A DNA stretch of 48,532 nucleotides. Source: an uncultured Candidatus Saccharibacteria bacterium. Lineage in GTDB: Bacteria; Patescibacteriota; Minisyncoccia; UBA6257; 1-14-0-10-44-23. The position numbers and the translations under genes were made by a program. Positions 24,597 to 48,432 of this stretch are shown here, piece by piece. The notes below the pieces were generated by a model that searched no databases, was not told where the DNA came from, and saw only the letters and a list, made by a program, of their open reading frames with translations. The DNA is taken from the NCBI GenBank assembly GCA_964560145.1, contig CAZLKS010000002.1:1-48532 (forward strand), written 5' to 3'. The number at the start of each line of letters is the position of its first letter. Positions within the stretch are counted from its first letter, which is position 1.

Positions 24597-24680
24597 GAGC
24601 GGATTGGTGATTGCATTGATTTTCAGATATAACCCGAGTAGGTTTACGATGTCACTCTAACAATCAACAGAGGAGGTCTC

Positions 24681-25577
24681 GTGTCCAACATGTTCCAGTT
24701 GATGTGGGCTGTGCGCCTCTCGCCGTTCTACCGCCTGAACTTTCAGAGTTCAAAGGATGGAATGAAGTTCGTTCTTGAGATAAAGGCTGATTCAGCAGAG
24801 ATTGTTCTCGAGAGATTGTCTAATATCCTCGTCAGAATAACGACTGTTTCTGGCATGCCAGCCTTCATTCCCCCAAGCCAAGGACTCGCCGGCTGGGGCT
24901 ACGGTACCATTGTCGTGGAAACGAAGTCCAAGGACCCCGCATGGCGCGCCTTCGAAATCGTTCTTCCCCGCGGCATCCGTGAACCGCTAAAATACGTTTC
25001 TATGTATGCCATAACCGAAGCCGAGCGAACTACGGCTTCCGACACGACGGTAATGGCGACCAAGTGCATCTCGGGAACTCTCGCATGGATCTTCGATATG
25101 CTCGACTTTGACTGCAAGACTACTGAGAGCGAGGACTCGTCTTCGTCGCAGGGCTTCTTCATTCAGAGTCTCGGTCACGCCGGAATGGCTACGAACCGAG
25201 GACAATGTGGTTTCACCGTTTTGCTAGACCCACCCGCCACTGAATGGCTAAGGTCCCTGTCTCAAGACGACAGAATCAAGCTTGAACAGAAAGCAATCAG
25301 GGCTATCGTTGCTTCGTACTCCCATCTGATGGGCTACCGAGTGACTACGGATCATAGCCACTGGAGCTGCGGAATTAGCACCGAAGGTGGCCGCATTCAA
25401 ATGCGGACCAGAGGCGACTGTGCCTGTTTGGGCGTCGATGGAGGATGGGATCCCGAAACCGATAGCATCCAAGTCCTAACCTCGCACAACATCGACGATG
25501 CCATCCAGCAGCTCTCGCTGCTCGCCGGCATCGCAGTAATCTGGAAGGCCTTCACTCAGCGCCTCCAGGTCAAATAG
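24681..25577 (+). CDS. Hypothetical protein, compositionally deviant (island a)
   Basis: GTG start 7 nt after AGGAGG, with the promoter-like TTGATT-17-TAGGTT at 24615..24643. It is richer in G+C and GC3 than its neighbours. A hairpin follows at 25591..25616. No family motif recognised. Confidence 0.6.
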   Translation: MSNMFQLMWAVRLSPFYRLNFQSSKDGMKFVLEIKADSAEIVLERLSNILVRITTVSGMPAFIPPSQGLAGWGYGTIVVETKSKDPAWRAFEIVLPRGIREPLKYVSMYAITEAERTTASDTTVMATKCISGTLAWIFDMLDFDCKTTESEDSSSSQGFFIQSLGHAGMATNRGQCGFTVLLDPPATEWLRSLSQDDRIKLEQKAIRAIVASYSHLMGYRVTTDHSHWSCGISTEGGRIQMRTRGDCACLGVDGGWDPETDSIQVLTSHNIDDAIQQLSLLAGIAVIWKAFTQRLQVK

Positions 25578-25652
25578 CGCGAACACATTCGAGCCGGTCC
25601 CCCGCGGGGCCGGCTCGCACTAGTTATAGATTAATTTCTCAAAGTAATCGAG

Positions 25653-27506
25653 GTGCGATATGCTTATATAATGTCATCATTTGAAAAGCAAAATCCCCTA
25701 CCCGCCGAGACTCAGACCGACATTGTCATTGGTAGACAACCCGTCGTTGGCGAAGCCCTCAAAGACACGGATAAAAAAGTACCCCGGATAACACCGAAAG
25801 AGGCACCCGACCCCGAGCTGGTCGAGCTTCTCAAAAACTTTAAGAAAAAATATGGAGGCGTCACTGGCTATCGCAATCTCTCAGAATCCGAACGATATAA
25901 GCGTCGAGCTGCTTTTGCTGAAATTCGCCAAAAGATACGACAACAAAGGGAAGGTATAGCAACTATCCTGCGCGACATCAGAGCAACGGTTGATAAGAAT
26001 CCCACTATCTTGTTCGAAGAACTACGCGCTTCGGTAATGCAAACTGCCGACCAACTAGGAATCACTGAGCAGCAAAAACAAAAGATTGACGAAGGTCTGA
26101 CTAAATTCGCCGAAAGAAATGAACGCGTCAAAAAATGCCGGAAAGAGTATCCCCGTAAGGAAGATTTATTCAAGGCAGCCTTCGGTTTTCAACCAACAGG
26201 AAACATTGACCTCGTGTGGGGCCCCATTAGCTTCTGCTTCCGCTGCCATAACGCAGAAGATTACATTGCAGCGTATCGAGCAGTAGCACCGTATTTCAAC
26301 CCCGAAAGAGAAGCCGCTATTATGCATCGAAGTGGCGGCCTAGCTCTCGCTAAGGTAAAAGCTCCGAAACTAAACGATCTTGTCACACTAGAAAAAGCTC
26401 AAATCGATTGGGCTCCCGCCGAGCCGATGATTACCGTTCCCCGCCCCGTAGAATATCTCGCCCCCATTAAACAGGGCGAACAATTATTGTTTACGAATGA
26501 AGCGGGGAAACGTTCAATGGTAAATATACGAATGCTCGACAAGAGCAACTTCTACATTTCGCAACTCCCAAGCGGAATCACCATTTACCAAAGAGTGTCC
26601 GACGAAGACCAAAGTAGCGATGTATTCAAGGCTCGCACAGTGGCTACAGCCGGCCGGGAGGTTCGCTTCGAAAGCCTCCTAGAAAAGTCCGGTGCAACCT
26701 ATGGATCGCTCCGGTATACTTTGGCTGGCGAAGGCAAGAAACGTCTCTCAGTACTGCTTGATAGTCGCGGCGTGCATCTCGTTAATTCATCACCCAAGCC
26801 ACTTGGCCAGATTGTAGAAATGCGTCTTGAGAACAAACTTGTTCCGCCCGAACGGTCACAACGAATCATCGAGCACGAAGAACAGCATCAGTTTAATAAG
26901 CTCTTCATGCCACTCGAAGAAGAACGGGATTACCTCACTATACTTCAACAAGCGGCTCAAGCTTCAGGCTCACCAGAAAAAATAGTCGAGAGAATCATTC
27001 GAGCCCTGGCAATCAAGACGCGCCAAGAGTTTACCGTCGATGCATCTGCTCGGGATGAAATACTAGCTTTTTATCGCGAAGGACGACCAATCAGTGAGAT
27101 TCGCACTATCTTAAAGGATAGCCCGCTGTACGATTACCAGAACCTACTCCGCGATGCCATCCACGAACAAATAGCAGCTATTCGAAAAAAAATAGAGAAC
27201 TGTTTCGCCCTAGTCACCTCCTCTCTCATTGCCACCGAAGAAGGCAAAAGCGAAACTCGAGTTCGAAAACTCAGTGTGCTACCCGTTACTGATGCTGCTG
27301 TTGAAAGCGGCCTTAATTTCGCCTTTGGACCGCTCTACAAAGAACAAATCGACGAGTGGCTATCTGCCATCGAGATTCTTGAGAAAAAAGGATACACGAA
27401 TGAAATAATTCTCGGTCTTCTCACGCAGCAACCACTCAAACGCTGGAAACGCCTTGCCGATCAACTCGCCTATCCGACCAAATCAGACAGAAGGTACAAT
27501 CTGTAA
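25653..27506 (+). CDS. Hypothetical 611-617-aa protein with an HExxH motif
   Basis: Long ORF with backbone-like composition, one HEEQH motif (..RIIEHEEQHQFNKLF..), and no signal peptide or TM helix. The start is uncertain (GTG 25653 or ATG 25671). Confidence 0.6.
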   Translation: MRYAYIMSSFEKQNPLPAETQTDIVIGRQPVVGEALKDTDKKVPRITPKEAPDPELVELLKNFKKKYGGVTGYRNLSESERYKRRAAFAEIRQKIRQQREGIATILRDIRATVDKNPTILFEELRASVMQTADQLGITEQQKQKIDEGLTKFAERNERVKKCRKEYPRKEDLFKAAFGFQPTGNIDLVWGPISFCFRCHNAEDYIAAYRAVAPYFNPEREAAIMHRSGGLALAKVKAPKLNDLVTLEKAQIDWAPAEPMITVPRPVEYLAPIKQGEQLLFTNEAGKRSMVNIRMLDKSNFYISQLPSGITIYQRVSDEDQSSDVFKARTVATAGREVRFESLLEKSGATYGSLRYTLAGEGKKRLSVLLDSRGVHLVNSSPKPLGQIVEMRLENKLVPPERSQRIIEHEEQHQFNKLFMPLEEERDYLTILQQAAQASGSPEKIVERIIRALAIKTRQEFTVDASARDEILAFYREGRPISEIRTILKDSPLYDYQNLLRDAIHEQIAAIRKKIENCFALVTSSLIATEEGKSETRVRKLSVLPVTDAAVESGLNFAFGPLYKEQIDEWLSAIEILEKKGYTNEIILGLLTQQPLKRWKRLADQLAYPTKSDRRYNL

Positions 27507-27517
27507 ATAATCAGGCG

Positions 27518-27823
27518 CTACCGGACTAAGCTCAACACGAATACCAGCAGGGCAACGGTAATCACCGCAAAAGCTCCGACTGTTTGAGCGAATAACCGAA
27601 TAGCGGCTTTCTTCTCTCCGTCGATATACATCTTGAGTGGCTCGTAAACAAAGAGGTAACTCATCACGGCAGCTGACAAAACAAAAAGTGCCAGCATAAA
27701 AATCGGAATGAGAAGTGGTGCTTTTTCCTCTACTGGCCCATCAGCAAACTGACTCATACCTAAAACAATCAGTCCGATATAGCCGATAGCAAATGCTGCA
27801 TTGCGAAGTGGTTTGATATTCAT
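27518..27823 (-). CDS. Small membrane protein (3 TM helices)
   Basis: 101-aa ORF that is almost entirely hydrophobic helices. Confidence 0.5.
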   Translation of the reverse strand: MNIKPLRNAAFAIGYIGLIVLGMSQFADGPVEEKAPLLIPIFMLALFVLSAAVMSYLFVYEPLKMYIDGEKKAAIRLFAQTVGAFAVITVALLVFVLSLVR

Positions 27824-27919
27824 AGCACCATTATACCAGAGCCAACGACAACCCCAACCATCCGCTCGATTAAAGTTCCGTGCTAGAGCCCCGAATATTA
27901 GAATGTAAACCCCTAAGCC

Positions 27920-27955
27920 CCCTATTTACCTATTCGTACGAATAGGTAAATAGGG
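27920..27955. promoter_or_regulatory. Perfect 36-bp palindrome (candidate operator) upstream of the ydeI-like gene
   Basis: ccctatttacctattcgt|acgaataggtaaataggg is exactly self-complementary. It ends about 15 nt before an extended -10 (tgcTAGAAT, 27971..27979) that sits 6 nt before the ATG at 27986. A 21-nt identical copy lies at 48433..48453. Confidence 0.6.
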
Positions 27956-27985
27956 TGGAACTCGGGGAAATGCTAGAATAGCCCT

Positions 27986-28237
27986 ATGGCCAAGCAACAG
28001 CTCGCTGGTGGGACGATTCACAAACTACCCGCAGACCTACAAAAGGCGCTTATTGGATTAGCCACCGTGCAAGCGCTCTGGAAAGACATCACTCCCCTCG
28101 CCAGAAATGAGTGGATTTGTTGGATTACCTCCGGCAAAAAAGCAGAAACGAGAAGCATCCGCATAAAGAAGGCTCTTTCAAAACTCAAGAGTGGTATGCG
28201 CAGACCCTGCTGTTGGGCAGGATGCACTCACCGCTAG
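27986..28237 (+). CDS. YdeI/OmpD-associated family protein
   Basis: ..ARNEWICWITSGKKAETRSIRIKKALSKLKSGMRRPCCWAGCTHR is the typical YdeI C-terminal signature. Confidence 0.8.
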   Translation: MAKQQLAGGTIHKLPADLQKALIGLATVQALWKDITPLARNEWICWITSGKKAETRSIRIKKALSKLKSGMRRPCCWAGCTHR

Positions 28238-28297
28238 AATAGCCAAATCATACACTGGGTCAGCGATAACCAATCCACTCGCCGCCGAAATCAAAAT

Positions 28298-28543
28298 TTA
28301 CTGCGCGGTCTTCTTCCAGCGCGGGGCGAAAAGACGAATCAGTAAAATAAAGAACTTCGCCTTCCACTTTGGAATATGATGCTCTGTCGTCATGCCCTTG
28401 TAACACATATCCAAAAACTCCTGCTTTGTCCCTTTGAAACAAAAATCCCCGTTCTGCCAGCACAAACTGCAATACTTCTCACTCGTCCGATTTCCTGGAT
28501 CCTGATTAAATGGCAACAAGCACGATTCGCATTGGTTTTTCAT
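28298..28543 (-). CDS. Zinc-ribbon domain protein
   Basis: CESC..17 aa..CSLC followed by a short helical domain. Confidence 0.65.
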   Translation of the reverse strand: MKNQCESCLLPFNQDPGNRTSEKYCSLCWQNGDFCFKGTKQEFLDMCYKGMTTEHHIPKWKAKFFILLIRLFAPRWKKTAQ

Positions 28544-28565
28544 ATGGAAATTATATCATAGGCGT

Positions 28566-28609
28566 TAAAAACACGAAGGCCCCAGGGCGACCTTCGGTCA
28601 ACTGGGGCC
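28566..28609 (-). terminator. Intrinsic terminator of island-b gene
   Basis: On the minus strand: ggccccag-(gacc gaa ggtc nested)-ctggggcc followed by ttcgtgttttt. Confidence 0.65.
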
Positions 28610-28613
28610 AGGG

Positions 28614-29144
28614 CTACGGCTGCCTGACAGCGGAGAAGCGATCAGCTAGGAACCTGTCCTTCTCGTCTCCGTAGGGGTCAACGAGAGGAGTCATGGTCAA
28701 GCGAACACCATTATTGGAACAGTAGACCTCTTGCGTCGTCGCTGTCGGGATGACGGTGCAACGACACGAGAGCACCTGTCCAGCTGCCACCAGCTCGCGT
28801 ACCACCGTATCGAGCCCCTGGACATACCCCATGGCGGCTTGGCTGATGTACGAAGGCTGATACCTATGGCGACCTAGCCTTCGGATGAGAACACTCTCCA
28901 TGGCAGAGGTGGCAAAGTACATCTCATCTCCGTCCTGGAGCGCGGACTCACTCGGCCCGCGGTAGATGAGGTGCCTGGGCTGTCCAGGGACCGACAGCGC
29001 CATGAACATCTCACAGTCCAAGGCGGCGAAGCAACTCTCAATCGCCTCGACGAGCTTGACCGGCAGAGTGTTCCGGCGATGCATCGGAAGCTGACATGCT
29101 CCCATCTGACTTCCTTTCCGACCAGCACACTGTGCCAGTACCAT
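28614..29144 (-). CDS. Hypothetical protein, G+C-rich (island b)
   Basis: This is the only long ORF with high GC3 in the G+C-rich patch. The promoter-like TTGATT-17-TAGGAT lies on the minus strand at 29176..29148. The ATG at 29105 (preceded by GGAAAGGAAG) may be the true start, because the ATG at 29144 sits only 3 nt after the -10. Confidence 0.55.
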   Translation of the reverse strand: MVLAQCAGRKGSQMGACQLPMHRRNTLPVKLVEAIESCFAALDCEMFMALSVPGQPRHLIYRGPSESALQDGDEMYFATSAMESVLIRRLGRHRYQPSYISQAAMGYVQGLDTVVRELVAAGQVLSCRCTVIPTATTQEVYCSNNGVRLTMTPLVDPYGDEKDRFLADRFSAVRQP

Positions 29145-29275
29145 TCCATCCTACCCTTTTCATTTGATTAAATCAATAAAATCTGGTATTTTAAGGTAAT
29201 CGCAGAATAAGGGAACGAAATCCCTCCCCGCCTATGGGCGGTACTCCCTTTAGGAAAGGGAGAATAAGACGGGGT

Positions 29276-30759: not shown

Positions 30760-30785
30760 GCCGAGAAATGAGTGAGTAGAGTATA

Positions 30786-30801
30786 GTTGGTAGTGAGTAG
30801 T
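30786..30801. repeat. Left inverted repeat flanking the four-helix-bundle gene
   Basis: gttggtagtgagtagt matches 15 of 16 positions of the reverse complement of 31207..31222. Its last 12 nt are the exact reverse complement of 31193..31204. Confidence 0.6.
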
Positions 30802-30808
30802 AAAATAC

Positions 30809-31168
30809 ATGGAAACAATACAGTCGTATAAAGATTTGCTCGTTTGGCAGAAAGGCATGTCGCTAACGAAAGAGATCTATCAGCTCACATCACAGCTTCC
30901 AAGAGACGAACAATACGGACTAATTTCACAAATGCGTCGTGCTGCAATATCGGTTCCCTGTAATATAGCCGAAGGTAGCCGGCGTAGCTCAAAAAAAGAT
31001 TTCCGTAACTTTATTCTCATAGCGTATGGTTCCGGGGCCGAGTTAGAAACGCAACTTGAACTCGTAAAAGTACTCGGTCTAATCGCAGAAGAAAAAACTA
31101 AGGCATCAGAAAAGATACTAGACGAGGTAATGCGAATGTTAAACTCTTTTGAAAAAAGTCTCTTATGA
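30809..31168 (+). CDS. Four-helix-bundle protein (23S rRNA intervening-sequence protein / Avd-like family)
   Basis: YKDLLVWQKGMSLTKEIYQLT..LPRDEQYGLISQMRRAAISVPCNIAEGS.R.S.KDF..F..IAYGSGAELETQL is the family signature. Confidence 0.9.
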   Translation: METIQSYKDLLVWQKGMSLTKEIYQLTSQLPRDEQYGLISQMRRAAISVPCNIAEGSRRSSKKDFRNFILIAYGSGAELETQLELVKVLGLIAEEKTKASEKILDEVMRMLNSFEKSLL

Positions 31169-31192
31169 TCTAAGTCCTGCCTCTCTTTCCCC

Positions 31193-31222
31193 ACTACTCA
31201 CTACAAACTACTCACCACCAAC
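31193..31222. repeat. Right inverted repeat(s) flanking the four-helix-bundle gene
   Basis: actactcactac (31193..31204) and actactcaccaccaac (31207..31222), followed by low-complexity caactat/caaacta repeats up to about 31270. Confidence 0.6.
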
Positions 31223-31273
31223 CCCCCCTTCCCCCACTATCAACTATCAACTACAAACTATTCACTTCCCCTT

Positions 31274-33578: not shown

Positions 33579-34670
33579 TTATCGATTAAGGGCTTTTTGC
33601 TCTGGAGTCAAGGTTTTATGAAAATCTTTCTTTGATTCGTAAGCAAGACAACTCCAGAGAACTGACTTACTCTCCGATCCCGAACAATGACTAAAGAAAT
33701 CAATCAGCGAATTAGAATCCTCATATTGAGAATACGGCGAAATAGCCACCCTCTCTCCCTCAATCTTTCTGAAATTTCCATACTCGTCGATGCCACCCCG
33801 ATAAACAACATAGGGATACGCCGATTCTAGCTTTTCTTTAAGAGGTAGATGAGGTGGTACCTGGTCAAAGGGGCCGTCATAATGATCGTTCGCGTAGACT
33901 GAAAATGCGGAAACGCCGACTAATAGCCTTCGTTGGTACTGCTCATCGAGAAAATAGATAAATCCTGTCTTATCTCCTTTAGCAAAGGAACTTACCGGAC
34001 GAGTCGTCATCTCGACTGGAGTCTCGTCCTCGTTGACCACGTAATAGAATGAGGCAGTACGGCGATTATAAATCAGTAGGAACTTAACGCCGGATTCGTC
34101 AAATATGCGGGTTACGAACTCCTCTTCCGGTAGCAGTTTGAAGCCCAAAGGAAGACCGAGTGCGGCTGGTAAAACAAAACGCACTGTCTTCGTCTCGTAT
34201 GAAACATCAAAGACGCCGTCTTCGACCTGCTTGATTAATACACCGTCCGGGACCCCTAAATCAGCGCTCCAGCTCCGCCCCCCCGCGTCGTCTTTGATAA
34301 AATATCCTATATGGAGGATACCTTTCTCAGCATCCAGTAATCGTAAATTACCGGAGATTTCGACCCCACTAGGCATGCGAACATTATAGTAGTAATACGT
34401 TTCTGTGGGATACACAACCGCGAAGGTCGGCAGCTTTTTGAATATGTAAGAGAAAAAATCTTTTGGATGACTATATGAAACGGACTTGTCGCTATCTAGA
34501 AAAAGATTGTTTATTCCAAGCGAATAGCGACTTCGGACAGTATTCCATATGTCGGAGCCGGAAATTTCATATTGATTAAATCGGATATCCTCGGGGTAAG
34601 CAAAAAAGAATGGTACCGATAGACCAACTATGACGATTAGGCTAGCGATTTTTATAAGAACAATTCTCAT
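33579..34670 (-). CDS. Hypothetical secreted protein
   Basis: 363 aa with an N-terminal signal or TM segment. No family recognised. Hairpins flank it at 33570..33598 and 34681..34707. Confidence 0.5.
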   Translation of the reverse strand: MRIVLIKIASLIVIVGLSVPFFFAYPEDIRFNQYEISGSDIWNTVRSRYSLGINNLFLDSDKSVSYSHPKDFFSYIFKKLPTFAVVYPTETYYYYNVRMPSGVEISGNLRLLDAEKGILHIGYFIKDDAGGRSWSADLGVPDGVLIKQVEDGVFDVSYETKTVRFVLPAALGLPLGFKLLPEEEFVTRIFDESGVKFLLIYNRRTASFYYVVNEDETPVEMTTRPVSSFAKGDKTGFIYFLDEQYQRRLLVGVSAFSVYANDHYDGPFDQVPPHLPLKEKLESAYPYVVYRGGIDEYGNFRKIEGERVAISPYSQYEDSNSLIDFFSHCSGSESKSVLWSCLAYESKKDFHKTLTPEQKALNR

Positions 34671-34721
34671 ACATCAGGCCAAATGACGCCCTTACGGGCG
34701 TCATTTGACTTTGGGTGTCTA

Positions 34722-35420: not shown

Positions 35421-35502
35421 ATGTATTATTAATAATTATGAACATCACTGTTAAGTATAATTGATTGCATGGATAAGACAATGCTCCTTTGTACTCGAAT
35501 TT

Positions 35503-36699: not shown

Positions 36700-36700
36700 A

Positions 36701-38455
36701 CTAGAAAGTTGTAGTTATTTTTTTCTTGCGGCCGATAAATGCCGTTGCCATAAGGAGTGCTCCGACGAGGAAGAAGGTAATGATTCTGCCACCCATCTCC
36801 ATATCCCAAACTTCAACGAGCAGCAGTCGTCCGACAACAAAGCCAAGCAAGATGCCACCATGGGTCTTAACCGCTTTGACATCGTTCAACTTGCCGTAGA
36901 AGTAGGTACTAACACCAATCAGGGTATAGGTCACGAGCGACATCATAGTCGCAACGTCCCCTATCGGTGCAAAGTAGTGGAAGGCGCCCCAGATGATGAT
37001 ATAGAGGAATGCTAGACCAACAACGATATATCCGTTGTGAAGTACCAGTGGAGTAACTGATTCAGCTCGACGTGACCGGAAGAACAGCCCGATAAAGAGA
37101 AGTGCAGCTGCCACAACCAAGAGTACAGAAACACTCCGAGCAAATGAGGAGCTGGAATCCCAGCCAAGCACACGAAATACGTAGGGTGTTGATAAAATGA
37201 GCGGAGCAATGAGAAGTAGTCCGGTGCCCTCAGCAAGGACAAGGTCGCGCACAAGGTAATACACCAGCAGCGGAATAACGGCAGCTTCGATAGTAAACGC
37301 AATAACCAGTGCAGCACCTTCGAGCTGAATCGCCGTTGCCGCAGCAAGGAACATCGTCGCCACACCCGCATAGAGTAAGAACGGCGCTGGTTGGCGTGTA
37401 ACCCGGAAAACCATGAATCCTCCACCAGCAAAAACAATCATCCAGGCAGAGATAATCAAAGTCTGCCACTCTGGCAAGATTCCGCACTTAATCCAAAGCA
37501 ATAGGAATATGCCGTTGCCCGCTGCAACTAACAGGTCCGCCTTTCGCTCTTTAACTGAGGACTTAAGTATGCCCAAAATGCCGACGACAAAGAACACGGC
37601 AGCAAAAGCGAAGGCAAACATCATGAGTGGACTCGTTGTTTGCAATGAGCCGAATATCCAAAACGAAGCACTGTACATCGAAACAATCATCAAGACTGCA
37701 AAAACAAGCGAACGCCAACCGGTTATAGCCACTACCCAGACCGTGCCGAGGGTTATGAGCAGTAGATAGCTAAATAACCCGACATTGTTTATCTGGCCCG
37801 AGTGAATCAAAACTGGAGTGAGTCCCGCGAGCACCATACTAATCAAGGCGAGACTCTGAACACGATACCGCACGCTCGCAAGGGCAACGAAAGCGGCCGT
37901 CAAGAACATAATTCCCAGCGCCGAAAATGGCGTAAAGAAATCATAGGTGACTCGTGCGGCAAAGATAGTCAGAATAACCGTCGCCGAACCAAGCACCAGG
38001 AAGATACCTCCCTGCTTTACGTACTGGCGCATACGATAGAATCCAAGGCCCATAAAAGCACATCCAGCAACGACTCCCAAAACAATTCTGCCAACCGGTC
38101 CAATCCAGTTGTTCATGAAAGCGTACGTCGTCAACCAGCTAAATCCGAGAAGCAACATAAACGCACCGAGCTTGACCAACCAGTCCTCCTTAATCCAAGC
38201 TGCAAAACTCTCCCCAGCTGTCGGTGTCGCCGGTTTGAGTTCGATTGGCGTAGCAGCACTCGACATGCTTGGCATAGGAGTGGCCGACTCAGCCACCGCT
38301 GACACCGGAGTAGCTACCGGTCGAACCGGAGAAGACTGAGTGAGCACACCAGCCTTCTTTTCTAATTCACGCACCCGTTTCGAGAGACTCGAGAGAGACA
38401 CCGCGATAACAACGAAAATAATAATTTCTATAAAAAAGAACATATGGTTAATCAT
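36701..38455 (-). CDS. DUF2339-like polytopic membrane protein
   Basis: 584 aa. An N-terminal helix with a charged linker (LSKRVRELEKKAG) and a low-complexity Pro/Ala/Ser spacer is followed by about 16 TM helices. Confidence 0.7.
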   Translation of the reverse strand: MINHMFFFIEIIIFVVIAVSLSSLSKRVRELEKKAGVLTQSSPVRPVATPVSAVAESATPMPSMSSAATPIELKPATPTAGESFAAWIKEDWLVKLGAFMLLLGFSWLTTYAFMNNWIGPVGRIVLGVVAGCAFMGLGFYRMRQYVKQGGIFLVLGSATVILTIFAARVTYDFFTPFSALGIMFLTAAFVALASVRYRVQSLALISMVLAGLTPVLIHSGQINNVGLFSYLLLITLGTVWVVAITGWRSLVFAVLMIVSMYSASFWIFGSLQTTSPLMMFAFAFAAVFFVVGILGILKSSVKERKADLLVAAGNGIFLLLWIKCGILPEWQTLIISAWMIVFAGGGFMVFRVTRQPAPFLLYAGVATMFLAAATAIQLEGAALVIAFTIEAAVIPLLVYYLVRDLVLAEGTGLLLIAPLILSTPYVFRVLGWDSSSSFARSVSVLLVVAAALLFIGLFFRSRRAESVTPLVLHNGYIVVGLAFLYIIIWGAFHYFAPIGDVATMMSLVTYTLIGVSTYFYGKLNDVKAVKTHGGILLGFVVGRLLLVEVWDMEMGGRIITFFLVGALLMATAFIGRKKKITTTF

Positions 38456-39202: not shown

Positions 39203-39231
39203 TTGACTTTTAAGTGTTTAAATGATATAAT
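39203..39231 (+). promoter_or_regulatory. Near-consensus sigma-70 promoter of the helicase island
   Basis: TTGACT (39203..39208), a 17-nt spacer, then TATAAT (39226..39231), with a TG at the extended -10 position. A roughly 170-nt G+C-rich leader follows. Confidence 0.6.
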
Positions 39232-39407
39232 ATATGCGTCTTTTTGCCCTTTGAAAACCTACCAGACCACCCTGTCTGCACCGAGCGCAGCGTCTGTGCA
39301 TCGGGAGCTCCCCCGTCAAGGGAGCGACACATAGGGTGGGCTGAAGCTCCCTGTGTGATTAACGGGCCCATTGGGCTTTCAACACCTCACACGGGAGGGA
39401 CAACACA

Positions 39408-41690
39408 GTGTCGCAGAATGAAGATGAGAAGGTTGCTCTGAGTCTCGAGGCTCTTCCCATCACCGCGTTCCGGGATGAGATCGTCACGACGATCCGGGAG
39501 AACCCGGTCACCATCATCGTCGCCGACACCGGCGCCGGCAAGTCCACGCAGATTCCGAAGTACCTCCTCAAGGAGGGAGCGACGGTTCTCGTGACACAGC
39601 CCCGGCGTCTGGCGGCTCGAACGGTCTCCGCGCGCATCGCGTGGGAGATCAATCAGGAGCTGGGAGAGGAGGTCGGCTTCCGTACGGCGCACGAGCACCG
39701 ACACGGACCGCTGACTCGCTGCCTCTTCGTCACCGATGGACTCGCACTCGTGCGCAGTCTCCTCGGCCGGGGGCAGACCGATGTCCTCGTAATCGACGAG
39801 GTCCACGAACAGAACCTCAACGTCGAGGTGCTGCTCGCCTGGGCCAAGCTCCAGCTCTCGCAAGAATCGAAGTTCCGGGTCGTGGTGATGAGCGCAACGA
39901 TGGAGGCCGAGAAGATTGCGGCCTACTTCGATGGCGCCCCCATCATGAACATCCCGGGGCGGCTGTTCCCAGTGGAAGAGCGAGATCCAAGCCCGGACAT
40001 CCTGGACGATGTCGTCGCACTCCTCAAGGAGGGACGAAATGTCCTCGTGTTCCAGCCTGGAAAACAGGAAATCCAGGTGATGGTGGAGAAGATCCGGGAA
40101 CAAATTCCGGGCATCGCAGAGATTCTCCCCCTGCACGGCGAACTCGAACCGAACGAACAGGCGAAGGCCTTCCGTTCCTACGACAAGCCCAAGTGCGTGG
40201 TGTCAACCAACGTGGCACAGACCAGTGTCACGATTCCCGACATCGACGCCGTCGTCGACGGTGGCGAGGAGAAGCGTATCGAGGTGCGAGATGGCGTGGA
40301 GGGACTCTATCTCCGGCCTATCTCGCTCGCGGACAGCAAGCAGCGCAAGGGTCGGGCCGGACGTACCAAGCCCGGCATCTACGTGAACCACTGCCCGCAC
40401 CGCGAACAACCCGATTACCCGACGCCGGAGATCGAGCGGCTCCTACTCGATCACGTCGTCCTGCGTCTTGCCGAAGCTGGCCTCGACGCAGCGGAGTTGG
40501 AGTTCCTCCACCAGCCGAACCACGAGAAAATCGTGGAGGCGAAGGAGACTCTGCGGGCTCTCGGATGTCTCGACCACGAGGGCGCCGTGACCGAGATGGG
40601 CAGCGTCATCGCGCGTATGCCAGTCTCGGTTCAGTACGGCCGCATGATCATCGAAGCCGACCGCCTCGGCGTGGTCGACGACGTGATCACCATCGCTGCG
40701 TTGCTCGAAAGCGGTGCGATCACCGCTCGCGACAATGAGCGCTGGCAGGATCTGTGCCGAAACGAGCACACGAGCGACGTACTGGCTCAGCTCGCGATCG
40801 TCCACGCGATCTACGGCAAGAAACACAACCACGAGAGGCTCGTGGAGCTGGGCATCCACCCCAAGGCCTACGGTCGGTTCCTCGAGACGCGCAAGCACCT
40901 CCAGGAAATCGTTCGCCCTCTGGTGCGGAACCCAGGCTCCACCCAGGACCGCGAAGCGATCATCCAGTGCATCGTCACCGGAATGATCAACCACCTCTTC
41001 ACGCGGGTGCAATACTCGCGGCGGGGAGCGTCGTACGTGAACGGTACGAGTACAGCGATGCGGCGCATCGATCGCCGCTCGGTCCTGCAGTACGATAGCC
41101 CCGAACTCTTGGTCGGGGTGCCGTTCGACCTGAACGTGCGCGACCGCGACTTCGCGGAATTGACGAACACGATCAACCTCATCACCTGGGGAACGGCCGT
41201 GACCGTCGAACAACTTCTCGCAACCGCCCCGCACCTGCTGCGGATTGCGGAAAGTGAGATTCGCTACGAGTACTACGGAGACTCGATTTCCTGGACCCGC
41301 AGTGTCTACTTCGGGGACAGGGTAATCAAGACCGAGTACATGGTGAGCAAGACGCACCCGGAAAAGCAGCGCCTCAAGGCAGCCTGGCTGGCGGATCCGA
41401 TAAACCGCCGTGCATACAACCTTGATGCCCTGCCGGAACCGGCGAGGACCCCCTGGACGGAGACGCAGGAGGTGGTGCCGAGCTACGCACCCGCATCGCG
41501 CCCCGCCTACCAGCCGGTCGTGACCACCCACACCCTCACCCACGCCCAAAAGCGCACCTACCAGTGCGCCTGCGGACAGACGGTGGAGATGGGAGTCATC
41601 GCCTACGCCGACCTCAAGTCGGGCCGCATCAAGACGACGAAGCTCCGCTGCCCCAAGAGCAGTCAGGAATTCGTCGTTTCGCTGGAGTAG
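39408..41690 (+). CDS. DEAH/RHA-family ATP-dependent helicase (HrpA/HrpB-like, with HA2 and OB regions), G+C-rich (island c)
   Basis: Motif I ADTGAGKST, motif II VIDEVHEQ, SAT (MSAT), and motif VI QRKGRAGR. HA2-like segment LRALGCLDHEGAVTEMGSVIARMPVSVQYGRMII. C-terminal Cys pairs (CACG...CPKS). GTG start after GGGAGGG. GC3 is very high. Confidence 0.9.
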   Translation: MSQNEDEKVALSLEALPITAFRDEIVTTIRENPVTIIVADTGAGKSTQIPKYLLKEGATVLVTQPRRLAARTVSARIAWEINQELGEEVGFRTAHEHRHGPLTRCLFVTDGLALVRSLLGRGQTDVLVIDEVHEQNLNVEVLLAWAKLQLSQESKFRVVVMSATMEAEKIAAYFDGAPIMNIPGRLFPVEERDPSPDILDDVVALLKEGRNVLVFQPGKQEIQVMVEKIREQIPGIAEILPLHGELEPNEQAKAFRSYDKPKCVVSTNVAQTSVTIPDIDAVVDGGEEKRIEVRDGVEGLYLRPISLADSKQRKGRAGRTKPGIYVNHCPHREQPDYPTPEIERLLLDHVVLRLAEAGLDAAELEFLHQPNHEKIVEAKETLRALGCLDHEGAVTEMGSVIARMPVSVQYGRMIIEADRLGVVDDVITIAALLESGAITARDNERWQDLCRNEHTSDVLAQLAIVHAIYGKKHNHERLVELGIHPKAYGRFLETRKHLQEIVRPLVRNPGSTQDREAIIQCIVTGMINHLFTRVQYSRRGASYVNGTSTAMRRIDRRSVLQYDSPELLVGVPFDLNVRDRDFAELTNTINLITWGTAVTVEQLLATAPHLLRIAESEIRYEYYGDSISWTRSVYFGDRVIKTEYMVSKTHPEKQRLKAAWLADPINRRAYNLDALPEPARTPWTETQEVVPSYAPASRPAYQPVVTTHTLTHAQKRTYQCACGQTVEMGVIAYADLKSGRIKTTKLRCPKSSQEFVVSLE

Positions 41691-41714
41691 TCTTCCAGCC
41701 CCCACAGACCCAAA

Positions 41715-41755
41715 GGCCCGGCAGCGGTTCATTCCGCTGCCGGGCCTCTCTTTTT
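41715..41755 (+). terminator. Rho-independent terminator after the helicase (convergent with hsp20)
   Basis: ggcccggcagcgg-ttcatt-ccgctgccgggcc followed by tctcttttt. Confidence 0.8.
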
Positions 41756-43003: not shown

Positions 43004-45808
43004 CTACCACTTCTCAACAATCAGCATCCTCTTCCCTTGCCACTCCGGCAACTTACTCCAAATCTCTTCGGTCACAAACGGCATAAATGGGTGAAGTGTC
43101 TTAAGTGAGCCCGTTAAAATATACCAGAGCATCGCCTGAGCACTTGCGCGAGTAGTAGGGTCAACCAACCGTGGCTTCGCCTCCTCAATGACTTTATCGG
43201 CGAAGGTGTGCCAGACGTAGTGATACATACCCTCGGCTGAGGCATGGAAGTTAAACGCCTCAATACCTGCGGTGCACTCCGCCTTAGCCTTTTCAAACTC
43301 GGCAACTGCTGCCTTGTCGGTTTCATTGGTTATCTCCCCTGCTGCATCTGGATTAAATCCATCAAAGTTCATCAGCACGAACCGGCTGATGTTCCAAATC
43401 TTGTTAGCAAAATTCTTATAACCACGCACTTTATCCTCCGAAAGCTTCTGGTCATTGCCAGCAGAGGTACCAATAATCAGCGACAAACGCGTGGCGTCTG
43501 CACCATACTTGTCAGCCAGTTCTAGCGGATCAAGAGCATTGCCCAGTGACTTACTCATCTTCTGCCCTTTAGCATCACGAACCAGCCCATGCAGGTATAC
43601 CTGCTTGAAAGGCACCTCGCCGAGCAGGAATCCACTCATGAGAATCATGCGTGCCACCCAGAAGAACAAAATATCATAGCCGGTCTCGAGCACCGCCGTT
43701 GGATGAAACTTACCCAAATCACTTTCGGGATTAATGCTTCCATCTGCCAACAAGGTAGGCTTGCCCTGAGCATCGCCGAAGGGCCAACCGAGCGTTGAGA
43801 ACGTCCAAAGTCCGGAACTGAACCAGGTGTCGAGAGTGTCCGGGTCCTGCTCAAACAAATCGCTGCCACACTTCGCACACTCGTGATGCACATCAAACGA
43901 AAGCACTGCACCATTCTTGACCGAATCTCGCGCAAGCATTTCGTCCGGCGTCAAACCATGAATGTTCTTGAGAACCGTTCGAAGAGTTCCAGCGTGTGTA
44001 ACTATCAATACATTCTTTGCATGATGGTCGCCCTTATACTTCTTGATTGCTTCCCAGGCTCGCTTCTCCACATCAGCATAACTCTCGCCATTTGGTGCTT
44101 TTTTATCATAGAAGAACAATCCGCCGTACAACGCATCAACATCGGTGTGCGGCACTCCTTCGGCGTCGCCGTAGTTACGCTCGCGTAGCGCTGCATCAAA
44201 AATTATCTTCTCTTTTGGAAAACCAATCTTCTCAGCGATAATCTCAGCAGTTTCACGCGTACGCTTTAAATCAGAAGAAATAATAATATCTATATTTTTC
44301 GCCTTAAGCTGATCCGCCGTAGCAGCCGCCTGTGCCCGGCCGTTCTCGTTGAGTCCCTCCTGTGCATGCCCGATAAAACGTTTCTGCACATTCCAATCAG
44401 TCTCGCCATGTCGAACGAAGAACCATCTACCCTTCACCTCTGGCAAAATTTTTGCTGCACCACAGCCGGCACAGTACCACACCGGAATCCGGTGTCCGTA
44501 CCAAATCTGTCGGCTAATACACCAATCTCGTAGGTTATTTATCCAGTGGAAGTAAACGGCATTAAATCGGTCTGGTGTAATTGAAATATCACCTCCCTGC
44601 ACCGCTGCCAGCATTAATTCCTTCAAGGTAACCTCACTACCCGAGGCGATACCCTTGATGTTGGAATGCGGAATCTTAAATTTTTTATTAACCGCCACAA
44701 ACCATTGCAGTTTCGGAAGTGGCTCAATAATACCACCCGTTCGTTCGGCGGTAGAAACATTCTGCTTAATCTTTTCTTCTTTAATCAAAAGCCCTTTGTC
44801 ACGAAGCCACTGTGCCACGAGTTCGCGTGCCTCGGTTGTTTTTTTGCCAACTAAAAGCGGACCAGCGAGCTCGGTCATCTTTGCGTACCCGTTAATTACC
44901 ACGCGGTCGGTCGGCAGATTATTCTTTTGTGCAATATCCCAGTCAGTCGTACTATGCGCCGGGGTCACACCAAGTGCGCCCGTGCCAAACTCTGGATCAA
45001 CTCCCTCGTCGCCTACCACGGCAATCGTAAGCGGAACGCCAGCGAAGTCAGCAATGGTAAACGTCTGGCCGATATACTGCTTCCACTTCCCTTCCGGATG
45101 TACGGCAATGGCTACGTCGCCCACTTTTGTTTCTAAGCGAGTCGTTGCAATTTCAATCGGACACTCCGGTCCGTACCGAAAGGTGTACAGCGTCGCCTCA
45201 CGCTCCTCATACACAATCTCGTCATCAGAAATAGTCGTCTGCCCTTTCGGATCCCAGTTTACGATGCGATGACCACGATAAATGAGTCCGGCCTCGTACA
45301 TCCGCTTAAACGCCTCGTGCACGGCTTTCGTGCGTGGTTCGTCTAACGTAAACGCCTCACGACTCCAATCCAGCGAGGCACCCATGCGCTTCATCTGATT
45401 AACAATAGTGTTGTGGCTTCGCGTTGCAAATTCATTCACGCGACGCAAAAGCTCCTCGCGACCTAAATCATACCGACTCTTGCCCTCTTTTTTGGAAATC
45501 TCTTTTTCAACTTTGGACTGCGTCGCAATAGCCGCGTGGTCGGTGCCTGGTAGCCAGAGCGTGGCGTCCCCCTTCATGCGATGATAACGAATTAAAATAT
45601 CCTGAATCGCGAGCATTGCAGCGTGACCCATGTGCAGAGTGCCAGTGACGTTGGGCGGAGGCAGAATAATAGCAAATGGCTTATGGCTTATGGCGGATGG
45701 CAAGTCACTAGAAGACTTGTCGGGATTAAAAAATCCGGACTCCTCCCACTTCTTATAGAGAGGCCCTTCGGCGTCTTTTGGTTCGTAGTTTTTAGGTAAT
45801 TCAGTCAT
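43004..45808 (-). CDS. valS: Valyl-tRNA synthetase with an inserted histidine-phosphatase domain
   Basis: PPPNVTGTLHMGHA (HIGH), TTRLETKVGD, WCISRQIWYGHRIP, DTLDTWFSS and KMSKSLGN. Residues about 461-642 are a PGM/PhoE-like domain (see findings). Confidence 0.95.
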   Translation of the reverse strand: MTELPKNYEPKDAEGPLYKKWEESGFFNPDKSSSDLPSAISHKPFAIILPPPNVTGTLHMGHAAMLAIQDILIRYHRMKGDATLWLPGTDHAAIATQSKVEKEISKKEGKSRYDLGREELLRRVNEFATRSHNTIVNQMKRMGASLDWSREAFTLDEPRTKAVHEAFKRMYEAGLIYRGHRIVNWDPKGQTTISDDEIVYEEREATLYTFRYGPECPIEIATTRLETKVGDVAIAVHPEGKWKQYIGQTFTIADFAGVPLTIAVVGDEGVDPEFGTGALGVTPAHSTTDWDIAQKNNLPTDRVVINGYAKMTELAGPLLVGKKTTEARELVAQWLRDKGLLIKEEKIKQNVSTAERTGGIIEPLPKLQWFVAVNKKFKIPHSNIKGIASGSEVTLKELMLAAVQGGDISITPDRFNAVYFHWINNLRDWCISRQIWYGHRIPVWYCAGCGAAKILPEVKGRWFFVRHGETDWNVQKRFIGHAQEGLNENGRAQAAATADQLKAKNIDIIISSDLKRTRETAEIIAEKIGFPKEKIIFDAALRERNYGDAEGVPHTDVDALYGGLFFYDKKAPNGESYADVEKRAWEAIKKYKGDHHAKNVLIVTHAGTLRTVLKNIHGLTPDEMLARDSVKNGAVLSFDVHHECAKCGSDLFEQDPDTLDTWFSSGLWTFSTLGWPFGDAQGKPTLLADGSINPESDLGKFHPTAVLETGYDILFFWVARMILMSGFLLGEVPFKQVYLHGLVRDAKGQKMSKSLGNALDPLELADKYGADATRLSLIIGTSAGNDQKLSEDKVRGYKNFANKIWNISRFVLMNFDGFNPDAAGEITNETDKAAVAEFEKAKAECTAGIEAFNFHASAEGMYHYVWHTFADKVIEEAKPRLVDPTTRASAQAMLWYILTGSLKTLHPFMPFVTEEIWSKLPEWQGKRMLIVEKW

Positions 45809-45849
45809 GCGATAGATAGATTCTAGCGGAAAAAGTGTAACTCGGATAC

Positions 45850-45878
45850 TTGACAGATAAGCAAAATATATATAAGAT
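45850..45878 (+). promoter_or_regulatory. Promoter-like element of island d
   Basis: TTGACA (45850..45855), a 17-nt spacer, then TAAGAT (45873..45878), in AT-rich DNA between the valS start and the G+C-rich ORF. Confidence 0.5.
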
Positions 45879-46751
45879 ATGTTCCATCACTACCGTGAGA
45901 TGCCGATCAGACGGCTTAAGCAAATGCATCTGAAAAACGTGCCGGTTTGGCACACGAGGTCTCCCATGATCGGTGAAACGAGTGGCGTCGCAAAGACCGT
46001 CTCGCCCCCCAACACGGGGAACGCACTCCTCATGATGAGCGGTCTCAAGCAGTTCGAGCTGGATCAGCTCGCTCTCGAGCTGAAGGATCCGAGCGCCAAG
46101 CACCGTCTGGGCCGCGTCGACGACGCGATTCGGACCGACCTGCTCTACCCCGAGGATGCAGATACGCAGGAGCTCCGGGCCATCATGGGGCTCAACTTCA
46201 TCGGCCGGCGCGAGATGGCGATGCTCACCAACCAGATGGGCGATCCGGTGATGGCGCGCAAGCCGCTCTACCCGAAGGCGCTCGTCCTCGCCCACAAGGA
46301 CGACCACCTCCTCATCTGCTTCCCGCGAATGTCGGGGGAGGAGCTGGAGAAGTACGTGGGGCCGCTGATGGCTCCCAACCAGGACCTCGCAGGCATCCTG
46401 GCGAAGGACGGAGGCTACGGCGTCTACAACGGATGGAAGCTCATCCGTAAGACGCCGATTCCGGGCTCGGCGAAGAAGACAGCCGAACAGCAGATCTCCA
46501 TGAAGGATGGCCTGCGATACGCAACTCCCTCCCTCACCCAGACGCTCTTCGTGATGGCGACGGTTCACAAGCTGAACCAAGGGCAGATGTTCGCGAAGCA
46601 GTTCGTGAGAGTCGGGCTCAACCATCGCGATGACGAATTCTACGCCGTCGGCTGGCCCACGCCGGCGGGAATCGAGGTCCGCCAGTTCTGGGCGGACGAC
46701 CGCAAGAACAACCTCTTCGCGACCGGCTTCTTTCACGAACCGTCTCGATAG
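45879..46751 (+). CDS. Hypothetical protein, G+C-rich (island d)
   Basis: High GC3 in this frame, and the protein composition is balanced. The antisense 311-aa ORF is Arg/Leu/His-rich and looks like an artefact. The likely true start is the ATG at 45966 (GAGG 8 nt upstream), where the composition shifts. No family recognised. Confidence 0.6.
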   Translation: MFHHYREMPIRRLKQMHLKNVPVWHTRSPMIGETSGVAKTVSPPNTGNALLMMSGLKQFELDQLALELKDPSAKHRLGRVDDAIRTDLLYPEDADTQELRAIMGLNFIGRREMAMLTNQMGDPVMARKPLYPKALVLAHKDDHLLICFPRMSGEELEKYVGPLMAPNQDLAGILAKDGGYGVYNGWKLIRKTPIPGSAKKTAEQQISMKDGLRYATPSLTQTLFVMATVHKLNQGQMFAKQFVRVGLNHRDDEFYAVGWPTPAGIEVRQFWADDRKNNLFATGFFHEPSR

Positions 46752-46805
46752 AGAGAAAGTCGCAACAGTCGGCCGTGCCCCACCTGGGCCCGGTCGATTC
46801 GCTTT

Positions 46806-47837: not shown

Positions 47838-47886
47838 ATATATCAATACTCTTTCGGGTACCATGCAGTGCACGGTACCCGAGAAG

Positions 47887-48324
47887 TTAGCTTTCGATTT
47901 GCAAGGCACAACGCGCCGCCTCAAGACGGCGTCCACACTGTGCCGCACGCTCTGCGTAGTCGGGATTGGCCCCGATGTCAGCAAGCGTACGCTGCATCTC
48001 AACGAGATACCCGCGAATACCCTTTAGCCTCACCTCCTTGTTCGGCAAAAGCAGGAGCTCGTCGAGATCGTCGCGATCCTCGAGCGGAAGACTCGCTAGC
48101 AACTGAACGCGCGCAATCTCATTTCGCACCATCGCGAGCCACTGCTGTCGATTCTGCTCGACGACCACGAGAGCTGCCAGGTACGCATCGCCAGTCGTAG
48201 CGAGTTGCGAAGCAGGCGCCTTCCCTCGCATGGAGCAATAGAGCTGCCGAGCGACATCGAGCCGTGCAGCATCGAGCACGTCTCGAGTGCAGAACCTATT
48301 CTCGTCGCTTTCGGTGATGGCCAC
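47887..48324 (-). CDS. Hypothetical helical protein, G+C-rich (island e)
   Basis: GTG start 7 nt after GGAGG. The promoter-like TTGACG-17-TAGGGT lies on the minus strand at 48393..48365. A hairpin (cgggtacc..ggtacccg) follows the stop. No family recognised. Confidence 0.55.
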   Translation of the reverse strand: MAITESDENRFCTRDVLDAARLDVARQLYCSMRGKAPASQLATTGDAYLAALVVVEQNRQQWLAMVRNEIARVQLLASLPLEDRDDLDELLLLPNKEVRLKGIRGYLVEMQRTLADIGANPDYAERAAQCGRRLEAARCALQIES

Positions 48325-48336
48325 GAGGCACCTCCG

Positions 48337-48376
48337 TTTTACCCCACTGATTGTCAGCCCTTATACCCTACTGATT
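48337..48376. promoter_or_regulatory. Two 16-nt direct repeats overlapping the island-e promoter and leader
   Basis: ttttaccccactgatt (48337..48352) and ttataccctactgatt (48361..48376) match at 14 of 16 positions, 24 nt apart start to start. The second overlaps the putative -10. Confidence 0.5.
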
Positions 48377-48432
48377 ATTCGCTCGCCCGTCAATTGACCT
48401 CCCCCGAAAGGAGAGAAGAAAGAAAATCCTCC

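Follow-up and report, generated by a model that had tools for sequence, protein, structure and literature searches.

Acquired genomic islets are already known from genomes of the Candidate Phyla Radiation (CPR). In Patescibacteria, they were described as segments of atypical composition which are lineage-specific, lie between conserved genes and carry accessory or unknown functions, and exchange within the phylum was considered their most probable source (PMC12455944). According to the same study, the donor was another member of Patescibacteria in 83% of the individual transfers inferred into this phylum, and a member of Actinomycetota in one of the 131 tabulated transfers (PMC12455944). Here, we analyzed a 48,532-nt stretch of a contig from a CPR metagenome-assembled genome (MAG; contig CAZLKS010000002.1; the whole stretch is hereafter called the window), in which five GC-rich patches, designated islands a to e, each hold a single gene. 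The islands are like the acquired islets in all of these features, including the probable source within the phylum. Unlike the islets, however, they have no integrase, tRNA target or flanking repeat, consist of one gene each, and are GC-richer than the host; moreover, their GC excess recurs in the homologs of many other genomes and in a syntenic copy with 37% identity, a pattern not predicted by the standard model, in which recent import gives way to amelioration. As a rule, DNA gained by transfer is AT-richer than its host. What is unusual at this locus is the presence of GC-rich autonomous single-gene cassettes without mobility genes, the family-wide GC elevation, and a diverged syntenic copy with the same GC content at third codon positions (GC3).

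Two other described systems can be compared with the islands. Phage morons have a similar architecture, namely their own promoter, a single open reading frame (ORF), their own terminator hairpin and an atypical composition, and islands c and d are likewise set antisense between co-directional conserved genes. Unlike morons, the islands are surrounded by cellular housekeeping genes without a prophage, and no viral homologs were detected. GC-biased gene conversion (gBGC) has been proposed in bacteria to raise GC3 in often-recombining genes regardless of donor composition (Lassalle et al. 2015, PMC4450053), and would fit the family-wide, host-tracking GC excess of the islands. In contrast to the gBGC cases, the GC3 shifts of the islands are large (+0.2 to +0.34).

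The best overall explanation, to which we give about even credence, is that the islands are accessory, lineage-specific cassettes from a GC-elevated flexible gene pool within Patescibacteria. Each patch would be an accessory single-gene cassette set in an intergenic gap between conserved housekeeping genes, brought in when DNA was taken up and recombined at hot spots of gene turnover near tsaD, valS, hsp20, and infB. The source would most likely be a flexible gene pool circulating among Patescibacteria rather than a high-GC host genome, because members of both the c and the d family are also found in other CPR genomes, where they again exceed the host DNA in GC content. The lasting GC3 richness may be due to continual exchange from GC-richer lineages or to a gene-specific drive such as gBGC.

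A total of 44 ORFs was defined in the window, including five island candidates and 39 backbone genes. The GC content of the whole window is 0.499, while the backbone ORFs have a GC3 of 0.509±0.050 (range 0.375-0.604) and a GC content of 0.481±0.031. All five island ORFs surpass the backbone GC3 maximum, a and e by a small margin, and the top five GC-rich segments in a maximal-scoring-segment scan of the whole window are exactly the five islands (Table 1), followed by background segments with scores of 14-15. The five GC- and GC3-rich single-gene patches, which had been noticed in a first-pass annotation of this DNA, are thus real but not equally pronounced, ranging from extreme outliers (c and d) through a clear one (b) to marginal ones (a and e). 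The islands show the pattern GC3>GC1>GC2, and the third-position composition of c and d is almost identical. In the island codons, AAG far outnumbers AAA and CTC is common while TTA has zero uses, in agreement with the first-pass annotation; the backbone, which the same annotation took to be dominated by AT-rich codons, is balanced (AAG 340 and AAA 372, CTC 330 and TTA 120). Synonymous-codon log-likelihood under backbone usage gave no information, because the backbone is nearly unbiased. The preference for CTC over CTG in c and d is the same as in the backbone.

The closest TsaD among GTDB species representatives (70% identical) was found in a Candidatus Harrisonbacteria MAG of the Parcubacteria group (locus L001), while the TsaD proteins of loci at Saccharibacteria/Dojkabacteria-level similarity reach only ~40-43%. 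Judging from these similarities, the organism is a Harrisonbacteria-like CPR bacterium of the Parcubacteria group. Membership in Saccharibacteria cannot be demonstrated, and the premise of an actinobacteria-associated episymbiont, on which an actinobacterial donor had been suggested, falls away. The genes flanking the islands were assigned by Pfam to infB, a weak 3D-domain protein, HSP20, and TsaD, as claimed before. The gene order in L001 is tsaD, valS, prsW-like gene, hsp20, and 3D gene, with gaps of 18 nt between tsaD and valS and ~130 nt between hsp20 and the 3D gene, and neither d nor c is present between them. The order tsaD-valS-prsW-hsp20 without d was also found in L003, L005, and L006, and all 28 tsaD loci compared lack both c and d. 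Since tsaD-valS and hsp20-3D gene are directly adjacent in L001, c and d are shown, as far as gene order tells, to be insertions into the conserved array tsaD-valS-prsW-hsp20-3D gene. The earlier idea of inserted single genes with foreign composition therefore holds for c and d, which are absent at the syntenic L001 sites, is plausible for b, and is weak for a and e.

The closest relative of the island d protein (P0134, 37% identical) is encoded in L044, a genome whose TsaD and PrsW-like proteins are 75% and 67% identical to those of the window. Like d, the gene for P0134 lies antisense in the gap between valS and tsaD, and its GC3 is 0.843 compared with 0.851 in d, while most L044 genes outside its island have a GC3 of ~0.43-0.59. 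The GC3 excess therefore appears to outlast a divergence that saturates synonymous sites, the two members of this syntenic pair being 37% identical and both at ~0.84. The valS gene of L044 is divergent (43-49% compared with 72-78% for L001) and slightly GC-raised, which suggests that the whole segment may have been exchanged rather than inherited.

The GC elevation is common to both families. A metagenome scan returned 80 helicase loci, in which the GC content of c-like helicases is higher than that of DNA at least 3 kb away in 17 of 17 loci (median +0.117), while more distant helicase homologs exceed distant DNA by +0.038 (Mann-Whitney p=1.8e-7 versus the c-like clade). Across 18 loci, the helicase GC3 is correlated with the backbone GC3 (r=0.87, slope 1.13, mean offset +0.18), and is above the highest backbone GC3 of the set (0.609) in 10 of them. 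In four more c-homolog loci found by exact protein look-up, the helicase is GC-richer than its neighbors, often within multi-gene GC-rich blocks of unknown genes. The d-family genes have a GC3 above that of their neighbors in all four genomes, including two further members with 0.714 versus 0.46 and 0.671 versus 0.51-0.59. In every genome examined, c-like helicases have a higher GC content than the DNA of their host; the excess of +0.13 in c is therefore typical of its clade and no evidence of fresh import from a 60-65% GC genome. High GC as a mark of import, as assumed in the first-pass annotation, thus fails for c- and d-family genes alike. It is possible, though we put it forward tentatively and lean against it, that some Patescibacteria families (the c clade, the d family, and often the neighboring "dark-matter" genes) are held 0.1-0.3 GC3 above the carrier genome, as a stable property of the gene class or of a cryptic GC-rich CPR mobile pool kept by biased conversion, selection or an unrecognized element, and not as a fading donor mark.

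Island c encodes a 760-aa protein with matches to the Pfam families DEAD (4.5e-07) and Helicase_C (1.3e-13), with RecA1 and RecA2 domains and motifs I (GAGKST), II (DEVH), III (SAT), V (TNVAQTSVT), and VI (QRKGRAGR). These five motifs and the two RecA domains are shared with the DEAH/RHA helicases of superfamily 2, such as HrpA, HrpB, Prp43/DHX15, Prp22/DHX8, and Prp16, and the columns of GAGKST, DEVHE, SAT, and QRxGRxGR are invariant in a 17-sequence alignment. The HA2 domains (winged helix and ratchet) are borderline (HA2_C, 21.7 bits against a cut-off of 21.3; HA2_N, 20.6 against 21), no Pfam match to OB_NTP_bind was found, and PDB alignments with Prp22-like chains reach residue ~526. The protein is below the NCBIfam equivalog cut-offs of both HrpA (TIGR01967, 289.7 against 722.75) and HrpB (TIGR01970, 264.4 against 546.15). 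The best PDB matches are Prp22/Prp16/DHX8/Prp43 (~1e-73), followed by HrpA (1e-65) and HrpB (1e-52), so that by sequence it is slightly nearer to the eukaryotic spliceosomal DEAH helicases than to HrpA or HrpB. It differs from HrpA in lacking the long C-terminal regions of the latter, and has a unique C-terminal extension of ~95 aa.

None of 5.8 billion proteins is more than 56% identical to the island c protein. The closest relatives (~650 aa) are 50-56% identical to it and ~64% identical to one another; being nearer to each other than to c, they suggest that c is a long-branch member of a compact CPR helicase clade. The relatives are found in CPR-type contigs with a GC content of 28-57%, one match being named Pacebacteria, with genes such as infB, rpsP, trmD, and tsaD (L029/L030) or fmt, def, murA, mreB, and frr (L040). 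According to these comparisons, c is predicted to encode an intact NTP-dependent RNA (or nucleic-acid) helicase of the DEAH/RHA type from a compact ~650-760-aa CPR clade. A conserved 350-655-aa protein is encoded on the same strand 3' of the helicase in 10 of 24 c-like loci (L029, L032, L042, L047-L050, L058, L059, L106), immediately downstream in nine of the ten; no Pfam domain was detected in the one member scanned (L042). No counterpart of this partner gene is present in the window, where c would be a solo version of a frequent two-gene module.

A k-mer-indexed search with the island d protein found only itself, while a full phmmer search of 1.84 billion representatives recovered 12 distant relatives with at most 37% identity. 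Gly75, Phe78, His114, and Trp157 are invariant in the family alignment. The AlphaFold2 model is confident (predicted local distance difference test, pLDDT, of 82), yet no fold match at E<0.1 was found in PDB or BFVD and a profile search against PDB was empty, which left no lead to a function from structure. A metagenome scan for d-family loci with a 3-sequence alignment recovered zero relatives. Based on the model, d may encode a folded alpha/beta protein of a sparse unannotated family.

Islands a, b, and e appear to encode small proteins without detected relatives, a and e having been compared with family and phage libraries only. For a, no match was found in Pfam, NCBIfam, PADLOC, INPHARED (tblastn) or a PDB sequence search; the single PHROG match is weak and partial (integrase phrog_21421, E=0.0034, 38 aa). 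Its AlphaFold2 single-sequence model (pLDDT 44) is unusable, and no function could be drawn from structure. The b protein matched only its own 90% cluster in the full search of 5.8 billion proteins, and variants with few residue differences occur in JGI metagenomes. No match to e was found in Pfam, NCBIfam, PHROGs or PADLOC. Homology of a, b or e to the GC-rich neighbors of the helicases or to any fetched locus was also sought, and none was found.

Every island is a monocistronic cassette with a promoter-like site, a Shine-Dalgarno sequence, a single ORF, and a stable hairpin (Table 1). The promoter-like strings quoted in the first-pass annotation are all present upstream of the islands. A hairpin had been reported 3' of a, b, c, and e; these four stand, and d has one too, so that stable hairpins (z from -3.2 to -6.4) follow all five islands. 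Islands c and d are antisense to the flanking co-directional conserved genes (hsp20 and the 3D gene for c, valS and tsaD for d). The promoter of c is located in AT-rich DNA, outside the GC-rich segment that starts at 39262. The GC-rich 5' leader of c had zero Rfam family matches and is only generically structured, and a riboswitch or non-coding RNA at this position was rejected.

A promoter-like motif, TTGAYK-N16-GTAGGNT, is common to a, b, and e. Of the looser pattern TTGA-N19-TAGGNT, the window has three copies where 0.32 are expected, all of them upstream of these three islands, the count being post hoc since the motif was derived from these sites. Because a TAGGNT-type motif as in e is also present directly upstream of tsaD in L044, this promoter is a native type and not an island mark. 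Capture of a tsaD promoter by e was rejected, as the upstream region of e does not align with that of L044 tsaD beyond the motif. In addition, a perfect palindrome of 28-36 nt (ATTTACCTATTCGTACGAATAGGTAAAT) was found at 27920-27955 and 48428-48461 (two copies against zero expected). The first copy is located between the divergent genes 27518-27823 and 27986-28237 and the second ~40 nt upstream of the promoter-like site of e; the pair is probably a shared operator for a dimeric regulator.

Table 1. Coordinates, composition and assembly junctions of islands a to e in the window (MFE, minimum free energy)
Island	Feature	Position	Strand	Remarks
a	Promoter-like TTGATT-N17-TAGGTT	24616..24644	+	One of 3 window matches to TTGA-N19-TAGGNT
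a	ORF	24681..25577	+	298 aa from GTG after GGAGG, or 295 aa from ATG 24690
a	ORF composition	24690-25577		GC 0.538; GC3 0.632; z=2.4 vs backbone
a	GC-rich segment	24852-25618		Score 19
a	3' GC-rich hairpin	25590..25617	+	-26.9 kcal/mol, z=-4.3
a	Junctions in other assemblies			L035, L036; between sortase gene and 611/617-aa gene
b	3' hairpin, then T-run	28578..28609	-	-25.1 kcal/mol, z=-3.5
b	GC-rich segment	28578-29136		Score 31
b	ORF	28614..29144	-	176 aa, or 163 aa from ATG 29105; divergent from infB
b	ORF composition	28614-29105		GC 0.591; GC3 0.707; z=3.9 vs backbone
b	Promoter-like TTGATT-N17-TAGGAT	29148..29176	-	Sequence match
b	Junction in other assemblies			L039; between OmdA-like gene and infB
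c	Sigma-70-like promoter TTGACT-17-TATAAT	39203..39231	+	11/12 consensus positions, TG extension
c	GC-rich structured 5' leader, ~170 nt	39238..39407	+	MFE -69.2 kcal/mol, z=-3.2 vs shuffled
c	GC-rich segment	39262-41746		Score 200
c	ORF, 760-aa putative DEAH/RHA-type helicase	39408..41690	+	GGGAGGG Shine-Dalgarno, GTG start
c	ORF composition	39408-41690		GC 0.624; GC3 0.808; z=5.9 vs backbone
c	Intrinsic-terminator-like hairpin	41714..41747	+	14-bp stem (12 G-C pairs), T-run; -34.2 kcal/mol, z=-6.2
c	Junctions in other assemblies			L129, L130; between 3D gene and hsp20
d	Promoter-like TTGACA-17-TAAGAT	45850..45878	+	Sequence match
d	ORF	45879..46751	+	290 aa from 45879, or 261 aa from ATG 45966 (NCBI call)
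d	GC-rich segment	45938-46796		Score 73
d	ORF composition	45966-46751		GC 0.625; GC3 0.851; z=6.8 vs backbone
d	3' hairpin, then GCTTTTT	46767..46799	+	-25.3 kcal/mol, z=-3.2
d	Junctions in other assemblies			L037, L038; between valS and tsaD
e	3' hairpin, between e and tsaD start (ATG 47837)	47851..47886	-	-24.5 kcal/mol, z=-6.4
e	ORF	47887..48324	-	145 aa, starting with GTG behind GGAGG; co-oriented with tsaD and directly upstream of it
e	ORF composition	47887-48324		GC 0.594; GC3 0.644; z=2.7 vs backbone
e	GC-rich segment	47905-48336		Score 28
e	Promoter-like TTGACG-N16-GTAGGGT	48365..48393	-	Sequence match

The region shows gene turnover at several places. The site of e holds unrelated sequence in both L001 and L044. 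A 98-aa ORF with a GC content of 0.67 is present at the position of e between rpsI and tsaD in L001 (600-1090), to which no homology with e was found, and a 141-aa ORF (GC3 0.70) and a destabilase-like lysozyme gene (GC3 0.81) are located beside the d homolog in L044 (4016-6232). The unrelated GC-rich ORF at the e site of L001 and the divergent valS of L044 suggest that the idea of turnover hot spots may be correct. Other CPR genomes did not show a general surplus of outlier ORFs with high GC content near tsaD, which argues that the effect is family-specific and not region-specific.

Turnover is also not confined to GC-rich DNA, because L001 also lacks, at the corresponding site, a block of four genes with backbone-like composition (33579-38455). 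This block encodes a 363-aa unknown protein, a 232-aa protein with 105-nt tandem repeats (34818-35138), a TSP_3-repeat protein, and a DUF2339 membrane protein. A low-GC Avd-like gene is located between infB and rbfA in the window and is absent from L001, where infB and rbfA are adjacent. Its ORF (30809-31168, + strand; GC 0.41, GC3 0.375, z=-2.7) encodes a four-helix protein similar to those of 23S-rRNA intervening sequences (IVS) and Avd; an 18-nt inverted repeat (30784-30801 / 31193-31210) encloses the gene, and a 23-nt direct repeat (31193-31215 / 31243-31265) lies behind it. No reverse transcriptase of a diversity-generating retroelement was found in the window. As a whole (30784-31265), it looks like a small mobile or IVS-like cassette.

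The valyl-tRNA synthetase next to island d (43004-45808, - strand) contains an inserted histidine-phosphatase domain (PGAM-like, RHG motif) at residues ~463-644 (Pfam His_Phos_1, 1.9e-47). This insert has a backbone-like composition and is missing in L001, L003, L005, L006, and L044, in which the tblastn segments abut within ~45 nt. Two adjacent tRNA-Ser genes are present at 21995-22234 (- strand), with the anticodons ACT, which is unusual for bacteria, and the expected GCT according to ARAGORN. Upstream of island a, the region 16195-24596 encodes a 1874-aa ORF, an Ice_binding/SpaA_2-like surface protein, and a sortase.

For comparison between assemblies, we used the ENA SPAdes assembly ERZ4216102 and the Logan assemblies of two runs (source samples SRR12487035, SRR12487046, and ERZ4216102). 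The junctions of a, b, c, and d recur in these assemblies with the exact proteins. One locus (L037, SRR12487035) is from a variant strain of 99.2% identity, which carries d at the same site and has 16 differences clustered in valS. Compared with L037 and L035, the strain differences are located in short tracts (45298-45362, with 16 single-nucleotide polymorphisms (SNPs) in 65 bp of valS; 24044-24290; 25703-25758; 27275-27425), and none is located inside islands a, b, and d. The clustering of SNPs in tracts suggests that homologous recombination may have occurred between strains. An indel of ~134 bp distinguishes the surface-protein gene of the window (22351-23988) from its counterpart in the ERZ4216102 assembly (L035).

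Several points weigh against the explanation by cassettes from a flexible pool. The d homolog at the same L044 site, with an identity of only 37%, could equally reflect vertical inheritance and loss in L001. No donor sequence was found for any island, neither actinobacterial nor from another high-GC source, the search for a and e covering family and phage libraries only. No mobility signature was detected: Pfam gave no integrase or transposase, no tRNA adjoins an island, and direct or inverted repeats were absent from the island borders. The comparison of synteny covers c, d, and e, as the locus of the relative ends at infB, short of a and b, and the GC3 excess of a and e is only 2.4-2.7 standard deviations. 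Finally, the taxonomy of most helicase matches was inferred from gene content and not from named records, and the flank GC3 in metagenome loci comes from crude longest-ORF calls, although a frame-independent GC test agrees.

Among the other explanations, the one that survives best, which we nevertheless regard as rather unlikely, is that c and d, and perhaps others, are old resident genes of Patescibacteria, inherited mostly vertically with losses, whose high GC3 is kept by gBGC, as proposed for bacteria (PMC4450053), or by selection on mRNA or DNA. The d homolog of L044 fits this explanation in slot, orientation, and GC3, since simple amelioration should have brought a pair so old (37% identical, with TsaD at 75%) to ~0.5. 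The helicase GC3 also follows that of the host backbone, the offset being constant (~+0.12 to +0.18), a c-like helicase compositionally at home at a GC3 of at least 0.8 was found at none of the loci, and the choice of CTC over CTG is common to islands and backbone. However, c and d are absent from the syntenic sites in L001, L003, L005, and L006, and the divergent and slightly GC-raised valS of L044 points to exchange of the whole segment. To our knowledge, the gBGC-associated shifts on record for bacteria are all smaller than the GC3 offset of +0.2 to +0.3. With zero SNPs inside the islands in the strain comparisons, substitution bias has no sites to count, and because of this the flexible-pool and the resident explanations are not separable from these data.

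The first-pass annotation proposed repeated, independent gain from a high-GC donor outside the CPR, such as an actinobacterial host, which we now consider improbable. Such a donor would agree with the GC content of 0.59-0.63, the GC3 of up to 0.85, and the order GC3>GC1>GC2 as in genomes of ~60-65% GC; the near-identical composition of c and d would fit one source, and the ORFans could stem from unsampled donors. Nevertheless, no such donor was found: c has at most 56% identity to any of the 5.8 billion proteins, with its best matches in CPR-type contigs of 28-57% GC, d has 12 distant relatives, and b has none, while the well-sampled Actinobacteria should give closer matches. The nearest relatives of the organism are Harrisonbacteria and other Parcubacteria-group MAGs, with Saccharibacteria-level TsaD at ~40-43%, and the frequency of Actinomycetota donors given above (PMC12455944) is low. 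The GC richness of the c and d families wherever they are found argues against simple recent import from a high-GC host, and a single host-to-symbiont event is no explanation for d-family and c-like genes that are GC-elevated in many hosts.

Even less probable is that the islands were left behind or carried in as cargo ("morons") by a mobile element, such as a phage or plasmid, which has its own high-GC composition and integrates into CPR genomes. The islands are self-contained transcription units with their own promoter and terminator, like phage morons, and elsewhere the c-like helicase is located in multi-gene GC-rich hypothetical blocks (L029 7854-14189; L042 761-9904) near genes for PIF1 helicase, thymidine kinase, T4-type RNA ligase, HicB, and Csx3-like proteins, with the conserved partner gene 3' of the helicase in 10 of 24 loci. 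However, the five single genes are scattered over 24 kb without clustering, and no integrase, capsid, terminase or relaxase gene was detected in the window. No convincing phage-specific PHROG match was obtained, the integrase match of a being weak and partial; c matched only a generic DNA-helicase family in PHROGs and showed only weak Cas3-type helicase similarity in PADLOC, which detected no known defense system in the islands. Searches of INPHARED (a and d), IMG/VR (c and d), and BFVD (d model) gave no match, and a phage, plasmid or defense origin was set aside, with nothing specific in these five resources. Integration at a tRNA or between repeats was likewise rejected, as no island has flanking repeats and the tRNAs of the window, at 1.6, 22, and 31.7 kb, do not adjoin any island.

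Barely conceivable is an assembly or binning chimera, in which the contig would have incorporated GC-rich reads of a foreign organism: its source is a MAG and one assembly has low coverage (~3-4x judging by contig names), but each island is bounded on both sides by intergenic DNA and its neighboring genes are intact, the junctions of a, b, c, and d occur likewise in ERZ4216102 and in the Logan assemblies of two runs, including the variant strain with d, and L044, a genome of a separate project, has a d homolog at that very site, so that chimerism of the islands, which the first-pass annotation had wished to see excluded, was rejected and is effectively excluded.

Genes of outlying composition are routinely taken for recent imports, and the donor is then guessed from that composition, which in CPR episymbionts means to nominate hosts. 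Here, that logic would name a high-GC host, while the evidence points to families which are GC-elevated in many unrelated CPR genomes; this calls for caution in host prediction from horizontal transfer in CPR bacteria. If the possibility of a GC-rich gene class or cryptic pool is true, it would contradict the amelioration logic used for dating and sourcing transfers. If the family-wide GC excess holds genome-wide, it would offer a tractable case for what maintains gene-specific GC3, such as biased conversion, selection or a hidden mobile pool. The window also draws attention to what may be an uncharacterized clade of compact DEAH helicases and a protein family new at the fold level, both recurring among the accessory genes of ultra-small bacteria.

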